Positions 1 through 11,937 of a DNA stretch of 18,841 nt are shown here, piece by piece. The notes below the pieces were generated by a model. The model worked only from the letters and a program-made list of their open reading frames with translations, did no database searches and was not told where the DNA came from. Source of the DNA: a virus (taxonomy: Duplodnaviria > Heunggongvirae > Uroviricota > Caudoviricetes); IMG/VR virus record IMGVR_UViG_2718217868_000006, one strand, 5' to 3'. Numbering within the stretch: the stretch's first letter is position 1; each line of letters opens with the position of its first letter. A program made the position numbers and the translations under genes.

Positions 1-585
1 CTATTCGATAATGGGTACTGTTGGCCATTCAATATCCGGTGCAGTTGTTGTATTAACACGGTTCAGCAACACCCGATATTTTTTCCAGGCTTCCAGCAAT
101 GAGGTTTCTTCCTCCGTTGCGATCTCCAGATCTACAGCATCCTGAAGTGGCGCTATATGCTCACTGGCTACCTGCATCAGGCTGTTTTTTGTTTCGTCCG
201 CCTCCCGGATCCGGAACAGTTTTTCTGCTTCCGTATCCTTCACCCAGGCTGTGCCGTTCCACTTCTGATATTCCCCTTCCGGCGATAACCAGGTGACATT
301 TTCCGGTAACGGACCGAGTTCAGAAATAAATAACGCGTCGCCGGAAGCCACGTCATAGACGGTTTTTCCCCGATGATCTTCAACGAGATGCCACGATGCC
401 TCATCACTGTTGAAAACAGCCACAAAGCCAGCCGGAATATCTGGCGGTGCAATATCGGTACTGTTTGCTGGCAGACCTGTATGAGGCGGAATATATGCGT
501 CACCTTCACCAATAAATTCATTAGTTCCGGCCAGCAGATTATAAATTTTTATGGTCCGTGGTTGTTCACTCATTCTGAATGCCAT
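1..585 (-). CDS. tfa: Tail fiber assembly protein (Tfa family)
   Basis: 194-aa ORF, ATG at 585..583, stop at 3..1. Translation recognised as lambdoid tail fiber assembly chaperone; immediately follows a tail-fiber C-terminal ORF with a TAATG stop/start overlap. Confidence 0.8.
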
Positions 586-1151
586 TATGCAAGCCTCACA
601 ATATAGTTAAATGCGATGTTTTTGACGGTGTTTTCCGCGTTACCAGCAGCGTTAACGGTGATGGTGTGTCCATGTGAACCAATCGCAACGGAGTGCGTGT
701 GTGCACCAATACCGACAGTATGTGCGTGTGCACCTGCAGATGCTGCTGTGCCGGACAGTGAGTGGCTATGGTTACCATCTGTACTGGTATTAGCTAACGC
801 CCCCGTAGACATACCTACTGAGCCTTGTACACCCCAGGTATTTTGACCTGAGCTTGTATAACCATATTGATAAGTATCTTTAAAAACACTGGGGTTAAAT
901 CGACGGCCATCTCTATGGCTGTGATTACCAGCTGCATTCGTGCTGCCACTTAAACTATGGGTATGCGCACCAGTGTTATTCGTGGATTTAGTGCCGTAAT
1001 CAAACGACGATGTGGTTTTCGTCCCCAAATCAGTACTGGATGCGCTGGCGCTGTGGGTATGCGATTTTATGCCGTCCTGTTCCTGAGACAATACGGCACG
1101 ACCACTGGCGGGCTTGCCCTTAATCGTCCAGCCACGCATATCAGGGATCAC
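585..1151 (-). CDS. Side tail fiber protein, C-terminal fragment (His-rich HxH repeats); likely a 5'-truncated remnant
   Basis: Translation is Gly/Ser/Thr/His-rich with repeated HTHS/HSHS/GAHTH motifs typical of phage tail-fiber distal domains. Frame stays open upstream to 1208 with no ATG (only GTG at 1151 or ATG at 1139), and no upstream tail genes exist. Confidence 0.65.
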
Positions 1152-1267
1152 GCCTGACGGATAAGCGGCTGCAAGTTTCGGGTATCGTATTAATTGATCT
1201 GCATCAACTTAACGTAAAAACAACTTCAGACAATACAAATCAGCGACACTGAATACGGGACAACCTC

Positions 1268-1501
1268 ATGTCAACGAAGAACAGAACCCGCAGAACAACA
1301 ACCCGCAACATCCGCTTTCCTAACCAAATGATTGAACAAATTAACATCGCTCTTGATCAAAAAGGGTCCGGGAATTTCTCAGCCTGGGTCATTGAAGCCT
1401 GCCGCCGGAGACTGTGCTCAGAAAAAAGAGTTTCTCCTGAAGCAAACAAAGAAAAGAGTGACATTACTGAATTGCTCAGAAAACAGATCAGACCAGATTG
1501 A
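1268..1501 (+). CDS. Small basic prophage protein with ribbon-helix-helix-like motif (YnfO/YlcI-like)
   Basis: 77-aa ORF with a basic N-terminus followed by an RFPNQMIEQINIALD...FSAWVIEACRRRL segment resembling a beta-strand/helix RHH fold. Family assignment is from memory of DLP12/Qin small ORFs. Confidence 0.5.
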   Translation: MSTKNRTRRTTTRNIRFPNQMIEQINIALDQKGSGNFSAWVIEACRRRLCSEKRVSPEANKEKSDITELLRKQIRPD

Positions 1502-1542
1502 AGCAATTTAGATAATCGTGCAGACTACGCCCCTCATATCAC

Positions 1543-1968
1543 ATGGAAGGTACTACAATGGCTCAGGTTGCCATTTTTAAACAAATATTCGATAAAGTGC
1601 GAAATAATTTAAACTATCACTGGTTTTATTCTGAACTAAAACGTCACAATGTCTCACATTACATTTACTATTTAGCCACAGAGAATATTCATCTTGTTCT
1701 TGAAAACGATAATACGGTTTTAATAAAAGGACAGGGTAAGGTTGTAAATGTAAGATTTTCAAAAAATAAATGCCTTATAGAAGCCACCTTAAAAGGATTC
1801 AAATCAGGAGAGTTATCATTTTACGAATACAGGAAAAATCTTGCTACAGCAGGGGTTTTCAGATGGATTACAAATATCCACGAAAACAAAAGGTATTACT
1901 ATACCTTTGATAATTCATTACTCTTTACTGAGAACATTCAGAACACTACACAAATATTTCCGCACTAA
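1543..1968 (+). CDS. DUF1398-family prophage protein (YdfO/YbcV-like)
   Basis: 141-aa ORF, AT-rich; translation resembles DLP12/Qin YbcV/YdfO proteins. True start may be the second Met at 1558. Confidence 0.55.
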
Positions 1969-2260
1969 ATCATAACGTCCGGTTTCTTCCGTGCCAGAAC
2001 CGGACTCGCTGGCATGATGAAATATGTGTACCCGGTAACCCCGGTGTGCATCGTTTTTGATTATTCCCGCACACTCGCGCAGAAGGAGTTCCCCGTCGGG
2101 CTACGGTCTCTGTTAATACGGGAATACGGCGACGATACAGCGCATGATGTGTCAGGCTTGAATACCTTTATCCTTTAAAAGGGATATCAGTTAAGTTATC
2201 CCGTGTAGGGTATAAGCCATTATCAAAGCCACTCTGTAGGAAGTGGCTTTTGTAATGGCA

Positions 2261-2285
2261 ATAAAAAGCCCCGCGAATGCGAGGC
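2261..2285 (-). terminator. Putative intrinsic terminator downstream of the lysis cassette
   Basis: On the - strand: AGCCUCGC-AUUC-GCGGGGCU stem-loop (one G-U wobble) followed by UUUUUAUU, about 175 nt after the Rz stop. Confidence 0.45.
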
Positions 2286-2459
2286 TAAATCCTGGTATTT
2301 GTAATGACTGGCTCTTATCTCAACGCAGCCCCTTACCGCGCGCAAAATGCTCAATATCAAGCATCAGCAATGAGATGTTTAATCTGGATTCACTCCAGAA
2401 GTGAGCACCACCCTGTCTACAGAGCCAGATGTGAAGGATGATGAGTAAAATTATCGCTA

Positions 2460-2927
2460 TCATCGAAGGCATTGCGTCCTGATGTATTCCTGAAGCGTTC
2501 TCAGTGCTGTTTGGTCGCGGATAATTCCGTCCCGGATACCGAGAACGTTTCGTCCAGCAACTGGAGAGAGTTCGACGGTGGCATCATTGCCCATGCCGGA
2601 GGCGCTGGAGGTTTCGGCTGAGGATGGCACAGGGCATTTTCCTTTGACGAGCACCCGACCACCATTATCAAGCTTGCGCCGAAGAGCATCATTTTCAGCT
2701 TTCGCATCAGCTAACTCCTTCGTATATTTATCATCGAGTGCATCAGCATCACGCTGGCGCTGCTGCATGTCAGTAATGGTGGCGTTCGCCTTCTCCAGTT
2801 CACTGGCCTTGTTATCGCGCTGTTCTTTGTAGGCGATTGCATTATCACGGTAATGATTAACAGCCCATGACAGGCAGACGATGATGCAGATAACCAGAGC
2901 GGAGATAATCGCGGTTACCCTGCTCAT
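2460..2927 (-). CDS. Rz: Rz i-spanin (inner-membrane spanin subunit)
   Basis: N-terminal transmembrane segment then a charged coiled-coil region; ATG at 2927 overlaps the endolysin stop (ATGA). The ORF track extends to 2939 but 2927 (MSRV...) gives the classic overlap. Contains an embedded Rz1 ORF. Confidence 0.85.
2501..2707 (-). CDS. Rz1: Rz1 o-spanin (outer-membrane lipoprotein), embedded in Rz in another frame
   Basis: 68-aa ORF wholly inside Rz. Signal peptide with lipobox VVGC-S and a proline-rich mature region ([11 protein letters not shown]), like lambda Rz1. Confidence 0.85.
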
Positions 2928-3421
2928 TGTTGCCCCCACAAACAGACCTCACGCTCAATCTCACGACGAGTCATCAGGCCTTTCCATTGCTTACCGCCAG
3001 CGTATGCCCAGCGACGTAGCTGGTCACATGCGCCCTTGATATCGCCCTGGTTTATTTTGCGAAGAAGAGTAGATGTTCTGAAATTGCCTGCGCCCACGTT
3101 ATAGACGAACGAGTAAAGAGCGCCGCGCGTTGTTTCCGGTATATCGACTTTGATGTACGGGTTAATTTGTCTGGCTACCGTGGCAAGGTCTTTATTCAGG
3201 AGGGCTTTGCATTCTGCTTCGGTATACGTTTTACCGGGAATGATGTCTTTTCCTGTATGCCCGTGACATACAGTCCATACGCCAACGATATCTTTGTATG
3301 GTATGTAGCTGACACCTTCCAGACCATCGTTACCACTTGGGCCAGTGATTAACACTGATGCTATAGCAATTGCTCCGCCACCAATAGCAGCAGCAACGGC
3401 TTTTCGTAATGATGGAGGCAT
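2924..3421 (-). CDS. R: SAR endolysin (phage lysozyme, phage 21 R-like)
   Basis: 165-aa ORF with a Gly/Ala-rich N-terminal signal-anchor-release segment ([18 protein letters not shown]) followed by a T4-lysozyme-like domain. Start overlaps the holin stop at 3421. Confidence 0.9.
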
Positions 3422-3636
3422 TATTCACCTCTCGCAGCCTTGCGCTTATCTTCTTTAATCTTGAAATAAAGGTTTGTCAGGTACGTCAGCAGGCCAAATA
3501 CCAGGCTACCCAGCACACCTATTGCTGCCCACTGTGAGGGCGTGACTTTATCGAGCAGCTGTAAAAACCAGTAACCGGCACTACCTGCTGAGGTGCCATA
3601 GGCGACACCCGTTGTTAACTTATCCATGGATTTCAT
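3421..3636 (-). CDS. S: Class II holin/pinholin (phage 21 S-like) with dual-start motif
   Basis: 71-aa ORF beginning MKSM (Met1 at 3636, Met4 at 3627), two transmembrane segments and a charged C-terminus; closely matches remembered S21. SD GGAGGTGAGG upstream. Confidence 0.9.
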
Positions 3637-3730
3637 AGCCTCACCTCCGCAAATAACGGATGGTGTACACGGTTCGGAACGAAGAGGAAAGGTATAGAAG
3701 TTACATTAGCGTAAGGCTTGAACATCTATT

Positions 3731-3761
3731 CAAAAAGAAAAACGCCGCGATTATTCTGGCG
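3731..3761 (-). terminator. Putative intrinsic terminator after the AraC-family gene
   Basis: On the - strand: short GC stem (CGCC...GGCG) followed by UUUUUCUUUUU, about 60 nt after the AraC-type ORF stop. Confidence 0.4.
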
Positions 3762-3823
3762 TAGCTGAAAGCATCATACAATTATCAAATACGAAAATTA
3801 CAAAATCATTAAAACGCATCACG

Positions 3824-4411
3824 TTACATCATGTCTTTTTCTAAAAAAAATCTTGATGAATATTGATGGAGAGGAACACCAAAATACCTTCTGAAAACAC
3901 TTACAAAATATGACGTGTTTTCATAACCGCATATCTCAGCAACTTTTCCAACAGAATATAAATTGTAGCTTAATAACCTTTCCGCCATCACCATTCGCTC
4001 TTCAAGAATTAACTTACTAAATGATAAGCCTTCGTGCTTTAATTTTCTTTTTAACAGACTTTCACTCAGATACAGTCTTGAAGATATATCACAAAGTCTC
4101 CATGCTGCAGATATATCCGTATGAATAATAGCCTTAACTTTACTTCCTAAACTATTAAGACATCCAAATAAAAAACTTTGCACTATTTTCTCTGAAGATA
4201 AGATAGCAAGACATGCAAGTGATATTTGATTTCTAACAAAATCCACAGTTCTGCCATCACAATTCAAGCATGCAATCAAGTTCTTTAACAATGAAAAATC
4301 TTCACATTCCACCATCAAGTATGCCGGATAAAACCTTCTTACAGAAAAAGGTGAGAGTGTGTTGCTTTTAAAGAAATCATTAACTGTTTTCTCTTCAACA
4401 TCTACGATCAT
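3824..4411 (-). CDS. AraC/XylS-family transcriptional regulator (short, AT-rich cargo gene)
   Basis: 195-aa ORF with a C-terminal double helix-turn-helix region typical of AraC-family proteins (…SFSKLILEERMVMAERLL…VGKVAEICGYENTSYFVSVFRRYFGVPLHQY). Markedly AT-rich coding and flanking DNA. Confidence 0.7.
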   Translation of the reverse strand: MIVDVEEKTVNDFFKSNTLSPFSVRRFYPAYLMVECEDFSLLKNLIACLNCDGRTVDFVRNQISLACLAILSSEKIVQSFLFGCLNSLGSKVKAIIHTDISAAWRLCDISSRLYLSESLLKRKLKHEGLSFSKLILEERMVMAERLLSYNLYSVGKVAEICGYENTSYFVSVFRRYFGVPLHQYSSRFFLEKDMM

Positions 4412-4904
4412 TACATGATCTATATTTGATGAAAAAAATCTTTTAAATTGTAATCAATGAGAACAGCACTTCCTTTTTAAACAAAATATCTTCTTTACCA
4501 ATTCGGACATCAAACGAGTTCAACACCAAAATAATAGAACATATGTATGGCATATTATCCACCTGATATCATTGGGGTTACACCAGGTAAGTATAGGTGG
4601 AAAATCAATATTCGCCAGTTCAACAATAAGGAAAATTTCATTGCATCACAAGTATAAAATTATGTATTTAACTCACAAAGACAAATTATTAAACCAATCT
4701 GTTATATTATATATAGCTGCGTGGAATCATAATATTATATATTTTGACTGGCATGTTTACCAACTTTAAGTTGCATCTCAATTGTTTCTTCAGCGTAAAC
4801 AGAGTTTTTATACAAACTGACACTCTGGGTATCATAGTGTAGTTTTTACGATTGTAAATATCCTGCATGCAGGAACTCATCCTTTTGGATGATATCGCAT
4901 ACAA

Positions 4905-5864
4905 TTAATTTACCATCAGTCTTAGAGCCAGTTCGTCCGGATAGGGATCGAAGTAATTCTGTGTAAGCAAGTAATCATTAGGATACTCACCCAGATAATG
5001 CTTCAGCAGAGTCAACGGCGCAAGAAGAGGTAATGTGCCAGAACGATAGTTAAGTATAACCTCGCTCAACTCTTTACGCTGGCGTGTACTTAAGTAGTTA
5101 CTAAAATACCCCTGTATATGCATCAGCACATTCGTGTGATTTTTACGTGATGCAGGTTTTCTGAGAATCGCCATCAGCTTATCACGATACACCTCAAAGT
5201 ATGATTCAAGGTCCGCCCACTCGTGTATTGCAGCCACAAATGGTCCCATATCTTTATAGCCTGCCTGACTATGCGCCAACAACTGAAGCTTATAACGACT
5301 ATGAAAAGCTAATAACTCTCTTCTTGATAATTTCTCCTTGTAAAGGTGATTGAGCTCATGCAAAGCAAAAACTCTTTCAACAAAATTCTCACGAAGCACT
5401 GGATCATGTAATCGCCCATCCTCTTCAACCGGTAGCCAGGAAAACTTTTCCATCAAAGTGCTCGTAAATAGTCCCACTCCATCTTTACGACCTCGATTAC
5501 CATTTTCATCATAGACACGCACGCGCTCCATGCCACAGCTGGGAGATTTAGCACAAACCACAAACCCCGATACATCCTTTAATTTGTCCATATAAGAACG
5601 ACTAAACTCTGTCATTCTCTCTGTCACATCCTCATTCTGGTCGTGGCTGAAACACATCCGTATATTTCCTTGCATCGAGCGCACAAGACGTAGAGCAGGA
5701 CGCGGAACTGGCAGCCCTATAGCCATTTCCGGACATACTGGTCTGAATGTTACCCATTCCACTAATTTGTCCATTAAAAAGTCAGCTCTTTTGTGACCAC
5801 CATCAAAACGAACAGCAGAACCGGCCAAACAACCGCTGATTCCAATCACAGGTTTTTTTATCAT
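4905..5864 (-). CDS. DUF523(TudS-like)/DUF1722 fusion protein, putative [4Fe-4S] thionucleoside desulfidase (RudS-like)
   Basis: 319-aa ORF. N-terminal half has the three-Cys signature of DUF523/TudS (GISGCLAG, RPVCPE, SPSCG); C-terminal half resembles YbgA-type DUF1722. SD AGGGGGAGAAT upstream of ATG at 5864. Confidence 0.65.
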   Translation of the reverse strand: MIKKPVIGISGCLAGSAVRFDGGHKRADFLMDKLVEWVTFRPVCPEMAIGLPVPRPALRLVRSMQGNIRMCFSHDQNEDVTERMTEFSRSYMDKLKDVSGFVVCAKSPSCGMERVRVYDENGNRGRKDGVGLFTSTLMEKFSWLPVEEDGRLHDPVLRENFVERVFALHELNHLYKEKLSRRELLAFHSRYKLQLLAHSQAGYKDMGPFVAAIHEWADLESYFEVYRDKLMAILRKPASRKNHTNVLMHIQGYFSNYLSTRQRKELSEVILNYRSGTLPLLAPLTLLKHYLGEYPNDYLLTQNYFDPYPDELALRLMVN

Positions 5865-6056: not shown

Positions 6057-6581
6057 ATGAAGTTATGGCCTGTGTTGACTGGCATTGCACTCTCTTTCAC
6101 TCTTATAGCATGTAAGGCCCCGACACCACCTAAAGGTGTGCAGCCGATTACAAATTTTGACGCCAACCGCTACCTCGGAAAATGGTATGAAATAGCTCGC
6201 CTCGAGAACCGGTTCGAACGTGGTCTGGAACAGGTCAGCGCTACTTATGGAAAACGGAACGACGGAGGGATTCGTGTACTTAACCGTGGATACGATCCAA
6301 CGAAAAATAAATGGAGCGAGAGCGAAGGTAAAGCATACTTTACTGGAGATACTAAAACTGCAGCATTGAAGGTTTCGTTTTTTGGCCCCTTCTATGGTGG
6401 CTATAATGTAATCAAACTGGATGATGAGTATAAGTATGCTCTTGTCAGTGGTCCGAACAGAGAATACCTATGGATTCTGGCAAGGACCCCAACTATTCCA
6501 GATAAAGTAAAAGCAGACTATGTGCGAACCGCTCAAAAGTTGGGATTCAATGTCAATGAATTATTATGGGTTAAACAATAA
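6057..6581 (+). CDS. Bacterial lipocalin (Blc-like outer-membrane lipoprotein)
   Basis: 174-aa ORF with lipoprotein signal (lipobox LIAC) and strong similarity to remembered E. coli Blc (…FDANRYLGKWYEIARLENRFERGLE…KVSFFGPFYGGYNVI…YLWILARTP…). Encoded opposite to late transcription. Confidence 0.85.
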   Translation: MKLWPVLTGIALSFTLIACKAPTPPKGVQPITNFDANRYLGKWYEIARLENRFERGLEQVSATYGKRNDGGIRVLNRGYDPTKNKWSESEGKAYFTGDTKTAALKVSFFGPFYGGYNVIKLDDEYKYALVSGPNREYLWILARTPTIPDKVKADYVRTAQKLGFNVNELLWVKQ

Positions 6582-6736: not shown

Positions 6737-7129
6737 TTATTTCGAACAATCAGCATCCATCTCCAATCGGAGATCCAACACCATCAGCATACCCTCCACT
6801 ACGCCCTCAGCTTTCTGAAGCATCCTGCCAACCCAACAATCAGATCGCCCATGCTTACGTGCAAGCGCCATAAAAGTCATGCCGCCGACATAATAGTCCA
6901 CCAATAAATCATGCAAATCGCTGTTGTTCTTTTTCAGACGGGCCATGCACCCGCAAATGATCATCGCGTCATCGTCACAACATTGTGGGCGAGATTTTAC
7001 TTTTGAAGGAATTAATCCCTTAAAACCGGCGGCAATGGACGACCAGGTCACATCTTCATGATTATTAGCCGCCCACGCTCCCCAACGCTCAAGAACCATC
7101 TGAATATCACGCATCAACTTACTCCACAA
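6737..7129 (-). CDS. Q: Late-gene antiterminator Q (DLP12 QuuD / phage 21-82 type)
   Basis: 130-aa ORF with a Cys-rich segment ([12 protein letters not shown]) and similarity to remembered QuuD; sits between rusA/ylcG and the lysis genes. Start may be the internal Met at 7114. Confidence 0.75.
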
Positions 7130-11700: not shown

Positions 11701-11772
11701 GCGCGGCGTTACCGCATACCAATAACGCTTCACTCGAGGCGTTTTTCGTTATGTATAAATAAGGAGCACACC

Positions 11773-11937
11773 ATGCAATATGCCATTGCAGGGTGGCCTG
11801 TTGCTGGCTGCCCTTCCGAATCTTTACTTGAACGAATCACCCGTAAATTACGTGACGGATGGAAACGCCTTATCGACATACTTAATCAGCCAGGAGTCCC
11901 AAAAAATGGATCAAACACTTATGGCTATCCAGACTAA
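11773..11937 (+). CDS. cIII: CIII (FtsH/HflB inhibitor stabilising CII)
   Basis: Not on the ORF track (54 aa). Translation [54 protein letters not shown] matches remembered lambda CIII; SD AAGGAG upstream. Confidence 0.9.
   Translation: MQYAIAGWPVAGCPSESLLERITRKLRDGWKRLIDILNQPGVPKNGSNTYGYPD

Follow-up and report, generated by a model that had tools for sequence, protein, structure and literature searches.

A probable pseudogene of a PatE/Psr/AppY-type AraC regulator between Q and the holin gene of a defective lambdoid prophage

The locus at positions 3731-4904 of the window, by which we mean the whole 18,841-nt stretch of viral DNA that was analysed, is very probably a pseudogene of a prophage cargo gene for an AraC/XylS-family regulator, and the regulator is dead in this copy. 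As a reference we used the intact allele of strain 63-2 (WP_001146308.1; 732 bp, 243 aa), and its alignment with the window showed exactly two 1-bp homopolymer gaps and three SNPs. Positions 3640-4904 match the chromosomes of Escherichia coli H5 and H6 (CP010169, CP010170) with 100% identity, and the region is matched by 1085 of 5426 complete E. coli genomes. The pseudogene status itself is already known, in that RefSeq marks the gene as frameshifted: the CDS RG48_RS17805 of strain H6, which maps onto the whole broken gene (Table 1), carries the PGAP label 'frameshifted' and the product name 'helix-turn-helix domain-containing protein, frameshifted'. The original GenBank annotation of H5 and H6 gives the truncated ORF as a protein. 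Database entries for exactly this 195-aa product (APK62500.1, APK67634.1) bear the name 'AraC family transcriptional regulator', and a further comparison placed 623 database sequences in its cluster.

The 195-aa AraC-family ORF described in the original prediction is present on the minus strand. Its residues 110-185 matched the Pfam models HTH_18 (50.6 bits, cut-off 33.6) and HTH_AraC (40.9 bits, cut-off 26.6), and the ORF contains the C-terminal ~100 aa with two helix-turn-helix (HTH) motifs that define the AraC/XylS family, while an intact frame encoding both domains of such a regulator is absent from the window locus. The prediction had also considered the protein short for its family, with little room for a ligand-binding domain. 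This did not hold, in that the product of the intact gene has 243 aa and a complete N-terminal domain; a naturally short regulator was ruled out by the alignment to intact alleles, and the short length is an artefact of pseudogenisation. As the opposite of a functional regulator, the prediction had named a non-functional remnant, a 5'-truncated fragment of a longer AraC gene that lacks a promoter or transcript. What we found is indeed a truncated remnant of a longer AraC gene with its reading frame destroyed, but the putative promoter region is still there.

Table 1 Features of the AraC locus and of the cargo slot around it (positions in the window)
Feature	Position	Strand	Description
Holin EssD (phage 21 S-type)	3421..3636	-	Downstream boundary of the slot; lysozyme and Rz/Rz1 next
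Terminator-like hairpin	3732..3762	-	Stem ACGCC/GGCGU, 5 bp, G+C, 11-nt loop, then U5CU5; downstream of the stop codon
195-aa ORF	3824..4411	-	Residues 49-243 of the intact protein
Whole broken gene	3824..4553	-	243-codon AraC-family regulator gene, 730 bp instead of 732 bp
P229L	3869..3871	-	Codon 229, CTC (Leu) for CCC (Pro), SNP at 3870
Second frameshift	4432..4438	-	Coding-strand T7, T8 in intact alleles
5' fragment	4443..4553	-	Codons 1-27 native, then nine out-of-frame codons and TAA at 4445-4443
First frameshift	4474..4478	-	Coding-strand A5, A6 in intact alleles
True upstream intergenic region	4554..4904	-	351 bp, G+C 0.32
YbgA-family protein, intact	4905..5864	-	319 aa; DUF523 (2-thiouracil desulfurase, TudS-like) fused to DUF1722
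Blc-type lipocalin lipoprotein, intact	6057..6581	+	NF007786, 316 bits, cut-off 267
Late-gene antiterminator Q	6737..7114	-	Upstream boundary of the cargo slot

The true start of the gene is the ATG at 4553, which is preceded by a Shine-Dalgarno sequence, AGGTGG, at 4564-4559. Minus-strand translation from 4553 gives MPYICSIILVLNSFDVRIGKEDILFKK, followed by the out-of-frame EVLFSLITI and the stop, and the N-terminus of this 5' fragment fits the family motif M..(I/V)CS(I/V)I. The two deletions are 41 bp apart. With the 1-bp deletion in the A6 run the frame is lost after codon 27, with a stop nine codons on, and the 1-bp deletion in the T8 run farther downstream brings about a second frame change. 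The 195-aa ORF is the longest ATG-started remnant in the original frame, and in its DNA-binding domain the invariant Pro229 is replaced by Leu. This proline is conserved in every member of a 15-member family alignment and also in YdeO, GadW, GadX, AppY, EnvY and YbcM.

It seems unlikely that the 195-aa ORF is nevertheless translated to yield an N-terminally truncated regulator, consisting of the DNA-binding domain and a partial N-terminal domain, which could be constitutive or could interfere with GadX, GadW, YdeO and AppY at shared sites. Such a product would keep the complete two-HTH domain, and in MarA and SoxS an AraC-type DNA-binding domain alone can activate transcription. Transcription of the locus probably continues, since the putative promoter region and the ribosome-binding site of the true start are both intact, and the internal ATG at 4411 lies ~32 nt past the premature stop, so that re-initiation is conceivable. 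However, no Shine-Dalgarno-like sequence was found upstream of this ATG, and the P229L substitution falls on an invariant residue of the DNA-binding domain. An AlphaFold prediction for the intact protein (mean pLDDT 75) shows that residues 1-48 contribute four beta-strands and one helix to the N-terminal domain; a product starting from M49 would have a mutilated N-terminal domain that lacks these four strands and would probably misfold. Among solved structures, those of Rns and ToxT are the closest, and both proteins require the N-terminal domain to be active. Because the internal start has no ribosome-binding site and about one-third of the N-terminal domain is missing, a functional regulator is not expected from the window allele.

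Homopolymer runs are typical sites of indel errors in long-read sequencing and pyrosequencing, and both deletions might be errors of this kind in the H5 and H6 assemblies, with the gene in fact intact. We consider this very unlikely from the distribution of the alleles. Exact matches to an 80-82-bp stretch across both runs were counted in the 5426 complete genomes, and the intact T8/A6 allele was present in 246 of them, the T7/A6 allele with one deletion in 228 and the doubly deleted T7/A5 allele of the window in 7. The identical double-deletion 80-mer thus recurs in genomes from four unrelated projects (H5/H6, MB10/MB50, ET151/ET450 and HH194M), and the one-deletion allele is tied to a haplotype of five linked SNPs, which is common to strains WCHEC020031 and EAEC 042. 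On the basis of these allele counts over independent assemblies, the sequencing-error explanation was rejected. The two-deletion alleles of the window and of HH194M do not have the five SNPs and show the haplotype of the intact 63-2 allele. T7 thus occurs on two SNP haplotypes, and the loss of one base from T8 has most likely happened at least twice.

EAEC 042 contains, in addition, an IS2 element inside the AraC gene. The IS1 element of strain ET82 was ruled out as a further disruption; it lies downstream, and the ET82 gene is intact. At least 1000 contigs encode exactly the intact protein. Within this allele group, about half of the genomes carry an inactivated gene (228 with T7/A6 and 7 with T7/A5, versus 246 intact). 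These patterns indicate that the lesions are real and that the gene has been inactivated repeatedly.

The near parity of alleles raises another explanation, in which the homopolymer runs form an ON/OFF switch that works by slipped-strand phase variation or by transcriptional slippage, comparable to the T9 run of Shigella mxiE. The ON and OFF alleles are about equally frequent (246 versus at least 235 genomes), and the step from T8 to T7 is found on two SNP haplotypes with at least two origins, as a switch would have it. Efficient slippage requires a homopolymer run of 8-9 or more. The window has T7 and A5, and the long run expected of phase variation or mxiE-like slippage is not conserved among sister alleles: T4CT4 and A7 are found at these sites in phage 1H12 and T6 in the PatE-like gene described below, and PsrA contains neither run. 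Moreover, each of the two lesions of the window allele would have to be corrected by its own +1 event, in one case within a run of only 5, which makes rescue by slippage negligible; no T9 allele and no within-clone variation was seen in these alleles, and P229L as well as the IS2 insertion in strain 042 resemble decay. An evolved phase-variation tract was rejected in that the runs are not conserved in sister alleles, and a switch of either kind is highly improbable.

A related idea, which we regard as very unlikely, is that the T8 and A6 runs are a mutational hot spot exploited by selection, through which lysogens repeatedly switch a costly regulator off and perhaps on. If true, this would account for the near-equal frequencies of ON and OFF alleles in E. 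coli, the T7 allele might trickle full-length protein by transcriptional slippage as in Shigella MxiE, and the double-deletion allele of the window would represent the locked-OFF end state.

The pseudogene of the window is best understood from its intact counterpart. The best NCBIfam model for the intact protein is that of YdeO (the equivalog NF007407, residues 1-236), with a score of 127.3 bits versus a cut-off of 348; the protein is therefore not a YdeO orthologue, and with a score so far under the equivalog cut-offs it is the orthologue of none among AppY, YdeO, GadW and GadX. The reconstructed and intact genes show full-length homology, including the N-terminal domain and the M..(V/I)CS(V/I)I motif, to the AR2-type AraC subgroup. 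From these sequence features we assign the intact gene to the YdeO/GadW/AppY/PatE/Psr subgroup as a two-domain AraC/XylS regulator. In BLASTP, the intact protein is 54% identical to Sakai ECs_0287 over 235 residues, and 39% and 32% identical over the full length to PsrA (ECs_1087 extended to a 237-aa ORF) and AppY, respectively. In alignments, its identity is 33% to GadW, 31% to YdeO, 26% to GadX, 25% to EnvY and 15% to YbcM. The DNA-binding domain is closer, with 72% identity to the PatE-like protein, 56% to PsrA and 41-47% to AppY, YdeO, GadW and GadX (~41% for GadX).

We infer that ECs_0287 is PatE (Z0321 of E. coli O157:H7, on OI-8/CP-933H) because Sp1, which corresponds in Sakai to OI-8/CP-933H, has no other AraC-type gene. 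Like the intact protein, it is a prophage-borne AraC/XylS regulator, of ~245 aa, with a homologous N-terminus of the M..CS(V/I)IL(V/I)L.SFDV type, and the 5' leader just before its start codon is homologous to that of the window gene. However, the PatE-like gene is located at the prophage end in Sp1 while the window gene is in the slot between Q and the holin gene, the N-terminal domains are only 40% identical, and the window copy is a pseudogene; the window gene is a paralogue different from PatE.

PsrA and PsrB correspond to Z1789 and Z2104, and the Sakai locus of PsrA is ECs_1087. Similar to the window gene, the AraC-like psrA gene belongs to a lambdoid prophage, where it is flanked by the antiterminator gene Q on one side and by the lysis genes on the other. 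Its neighbours in Sp4 are a CAAX protease gene and tRNA genes, whereas those of the window gene encode a lipocalin and a YbgA-family protein, and unlike the window gene, psrA is intact in O157 and much more diverged in sequence. We also observed that psrA (18678-19391 of the Sakai locus) is annotated with 195 aa and that its ORF extends upstream to 237 aa, with the extension opening with the family N-terminus MVVVCSVIMV. The annotated psrA start is probably too far downstream. The shared length of 195 aa between annotated PsrA and the window ORF is a coincidence.

AppY (encoded on DLP12), YdeO, GadW and GadX have the two-domain architecture and the N-terminal motif in common with the intact protein, and the full-length identities of AppY, YdeO and GadW to it are 30-33%. 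The window prophage and DLP12, the prophage of AppY, also have a common Q-lysis backbone (essD, rrrD). A Foldseek search with the model of the intact protein returned CsvR, Rns and ToxT as the best full-length matches (E 2e-11 to 1e-7). These proteins match by sequence as well (E 6e-18 to 1e-9), but their identity to the intact protein is only 18-20% and the TM-score is ~0.4, owing to a different predicted arrangement of the two domains relative to each other. For the DNA-binding domain of GadX (3mkl), the sequence E-value was 2.5e-20 and the structural TM-score 0.85. The alignment with named regulators that had been suggested for this gene thus gave AppY at 32% over the full length, GadX at ~41% in the DNA-binding domain, and Rns, with CsvR and ToxT, as the best structural match. 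The resemblance to regulators of acid resistance and virulence was borne out too, since the closest characterised relatives are PatE and PsrA, which are linked to acid resistance and type III secretion.

PatE and PsrB activate gadE and hdeA, AppY activates gadE directly, and PsrA works through GadE and YhiF as a repressor of type III secretion (PMC10877973, PMC10057817). PsrA acts via the GAD acid-stress regulators (PMC10877973), and the authors of the AppY study noted the recurrent integration of AraC regulators from prophages into the AR2 system (PMC10877973, PMC10057817). From the homologues PatE, PsrA/PsrB and AppY, of which PsrA and the PatE-like protein are 39-54% identical, we infer the regulon: the intact protein is most likely a further prophage-encoded activator of host acid-resistance promoters. 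Its binding sites would be AT-rich promoters in the host's regulon of glutamate-dependent acid resistance (gadE, hdeA), and in this way it would link the acid resistance of the lysogen to the prophage.

The element that carries the gene is a lambdoid prophage, which is defective and occupies the lambda attachment site. In H6 it is located between bioA/ybhB and ybhC, which is the lambda attachment region, and its genes include int, xis, exo, bet, gam, kil, cIII, N, cI, cro, cII, rusA and Q. The exo gene is a pseudogene with an internal stop, and the lysis cassette carries the DLP12 names essD and rrrD. Apart from tail-fibre remnants, the H6 prophage annotation contains no head or tail genes, and the prophage is therefore defective. 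In the window, positions 1-3636 pass directly from the lysis cassette to DUF1398/YlcI-like genes and then to tail-fibre remnants; the picture is that of a decaying prophage with a Q-lysis backbone similar to that of DLP12, in which nmpC occupies the corresponding Q-holin slot. Rfam searches matched IS009 (RF02111) at 44-242 on the minus strand with 221 bits against a gathering score of 117; at this end of the prophage, the match lies within the tail-fibre assembly gene or overlaps it. They also matched the lambda cIII thermoregulator element (RF01804) at 11760-11818 on the plus strand with 88.5 bits, which fits the lambda-like early-left operon of the prophage.

The AraC gene is the last of three cargo genes in a block with the order Q, lipocalin, YbgA, AraC and holin. 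It has two marks of a moron, in that it sits between conserved phage genes and deviates from them in base composition (G+C of 0.32 in the AraC gene region versus 0.48 in Q and 0.48 in the holin gene). Isolated temperate phages have this block too, with an intact AraC gene, namely IdasGreatGrand, whose AraC protein is 99.2% identical, and 1H12/Lambda_ev, where it is 82.7% identical. Between the window and phage 1H12, the identity is 97% for the lipocalin, 93% for YbgA and 83% for the AraC protein. Nothing on the lipocalin-YbgA-AraC block was found in the literature searched.

The locus had been placed in the most AT-rich DNA of the window, and indeed 3731-4904 holds the stretch of lowest G+C (0.319 versus 0.450 for the whole window). 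Among segments of 1174 bp, those with the lowest G+C begin near 3688, and the lowest 500-bp segment begins at 4362 (0.292). The mean G+C of E. coli is ~0.51. The position of the AraC gene on a prophage agrees with the proposed horizontal acquisition of this AT-rich DNA. [quoted passage not shown]

A non-coding AT-rich region of about 490 bp had been described upstream of the ORF. The gap of 493 bp between the 195-aa ORF and the next upstream ORF (4905) is real, but 142 bp of it (4412-4553) belong to the AraC gene as its disrupted 5' coding sequence, which leaves a true intergenic region of 351 bp. Two 65-aa ORFs in this region, at 4572-4769 (+) and 4707-4904 (-), were treated as non-coding; PGAP annotates neither, and in phage 1H12, whose version of the region contains indels, only 38 aa remain of the minus-strand ORF. 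The best promoter-like site, TTTACA-16 nt-TATGAT, was found at 4858-4831 on the minus strand with a consensus score of 10/12. Promoter-like hits in the upstream region are as numerous as expected from shuffled sequence. The TTTACA-TATGAT site is part of a 29-bp island that is conserved in the 83%-identical allele of phage 1H12, while the flanks are diverged and contain indels, and the sequence around the ribosome-binding site is conserved in this phage as well. Judged by this conservation, the arrangement fits an independently transcribed cargo unit with a putative promoter and a ~270-nt leader.

The AGGTGG of the ribosome-binding site can pair with a CCACCT ~35 nt upstream (4559-4600, minus strand). 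Both arms are conserved in phage 1H12, with a different loop, and the PatE-like gene has a similar CATCC/GGATG arrangement. A hairpin that sequesters the Shine-Dalgarno sequence was considered; with -13.5 kcal/mol it folds no better than shuffled sequence (z -0.74), and we make no claim for it. At the other end of the gene, the hairpin and U5CU5 tract of the predicted downstream terminator are present, but the hairpin was not reported by the consensus scan and its folding energy of ~-8 kcal/mol is no better than that of shuffled sequence (z -0.43). A terminator at this site is plausible but weak. No RNA element was found in 3731-4904 by Rfam at gathering thresholds.

For the window itself, the consequences are small, since this copy of the gene is dead, and the case cautions that what a single reading frame presents as a 'short AraC regulator' can be left over from a frameshift. 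The region is carried by about one-fifth of the complete E. coli genomes, and the frequent inactivation of the gene hints that the regulator may impose a fitness cost on lysogens. The intact 243-aa paralogue, on the other hand, is an uncharacterised relative of PatE, Psr and AppY that occurs in functional lambdoid phages together with lipocalin and YbgA/TudS-like genes, and it would be a reasonable candidate for a further link from prophages to the network of acid resistance.
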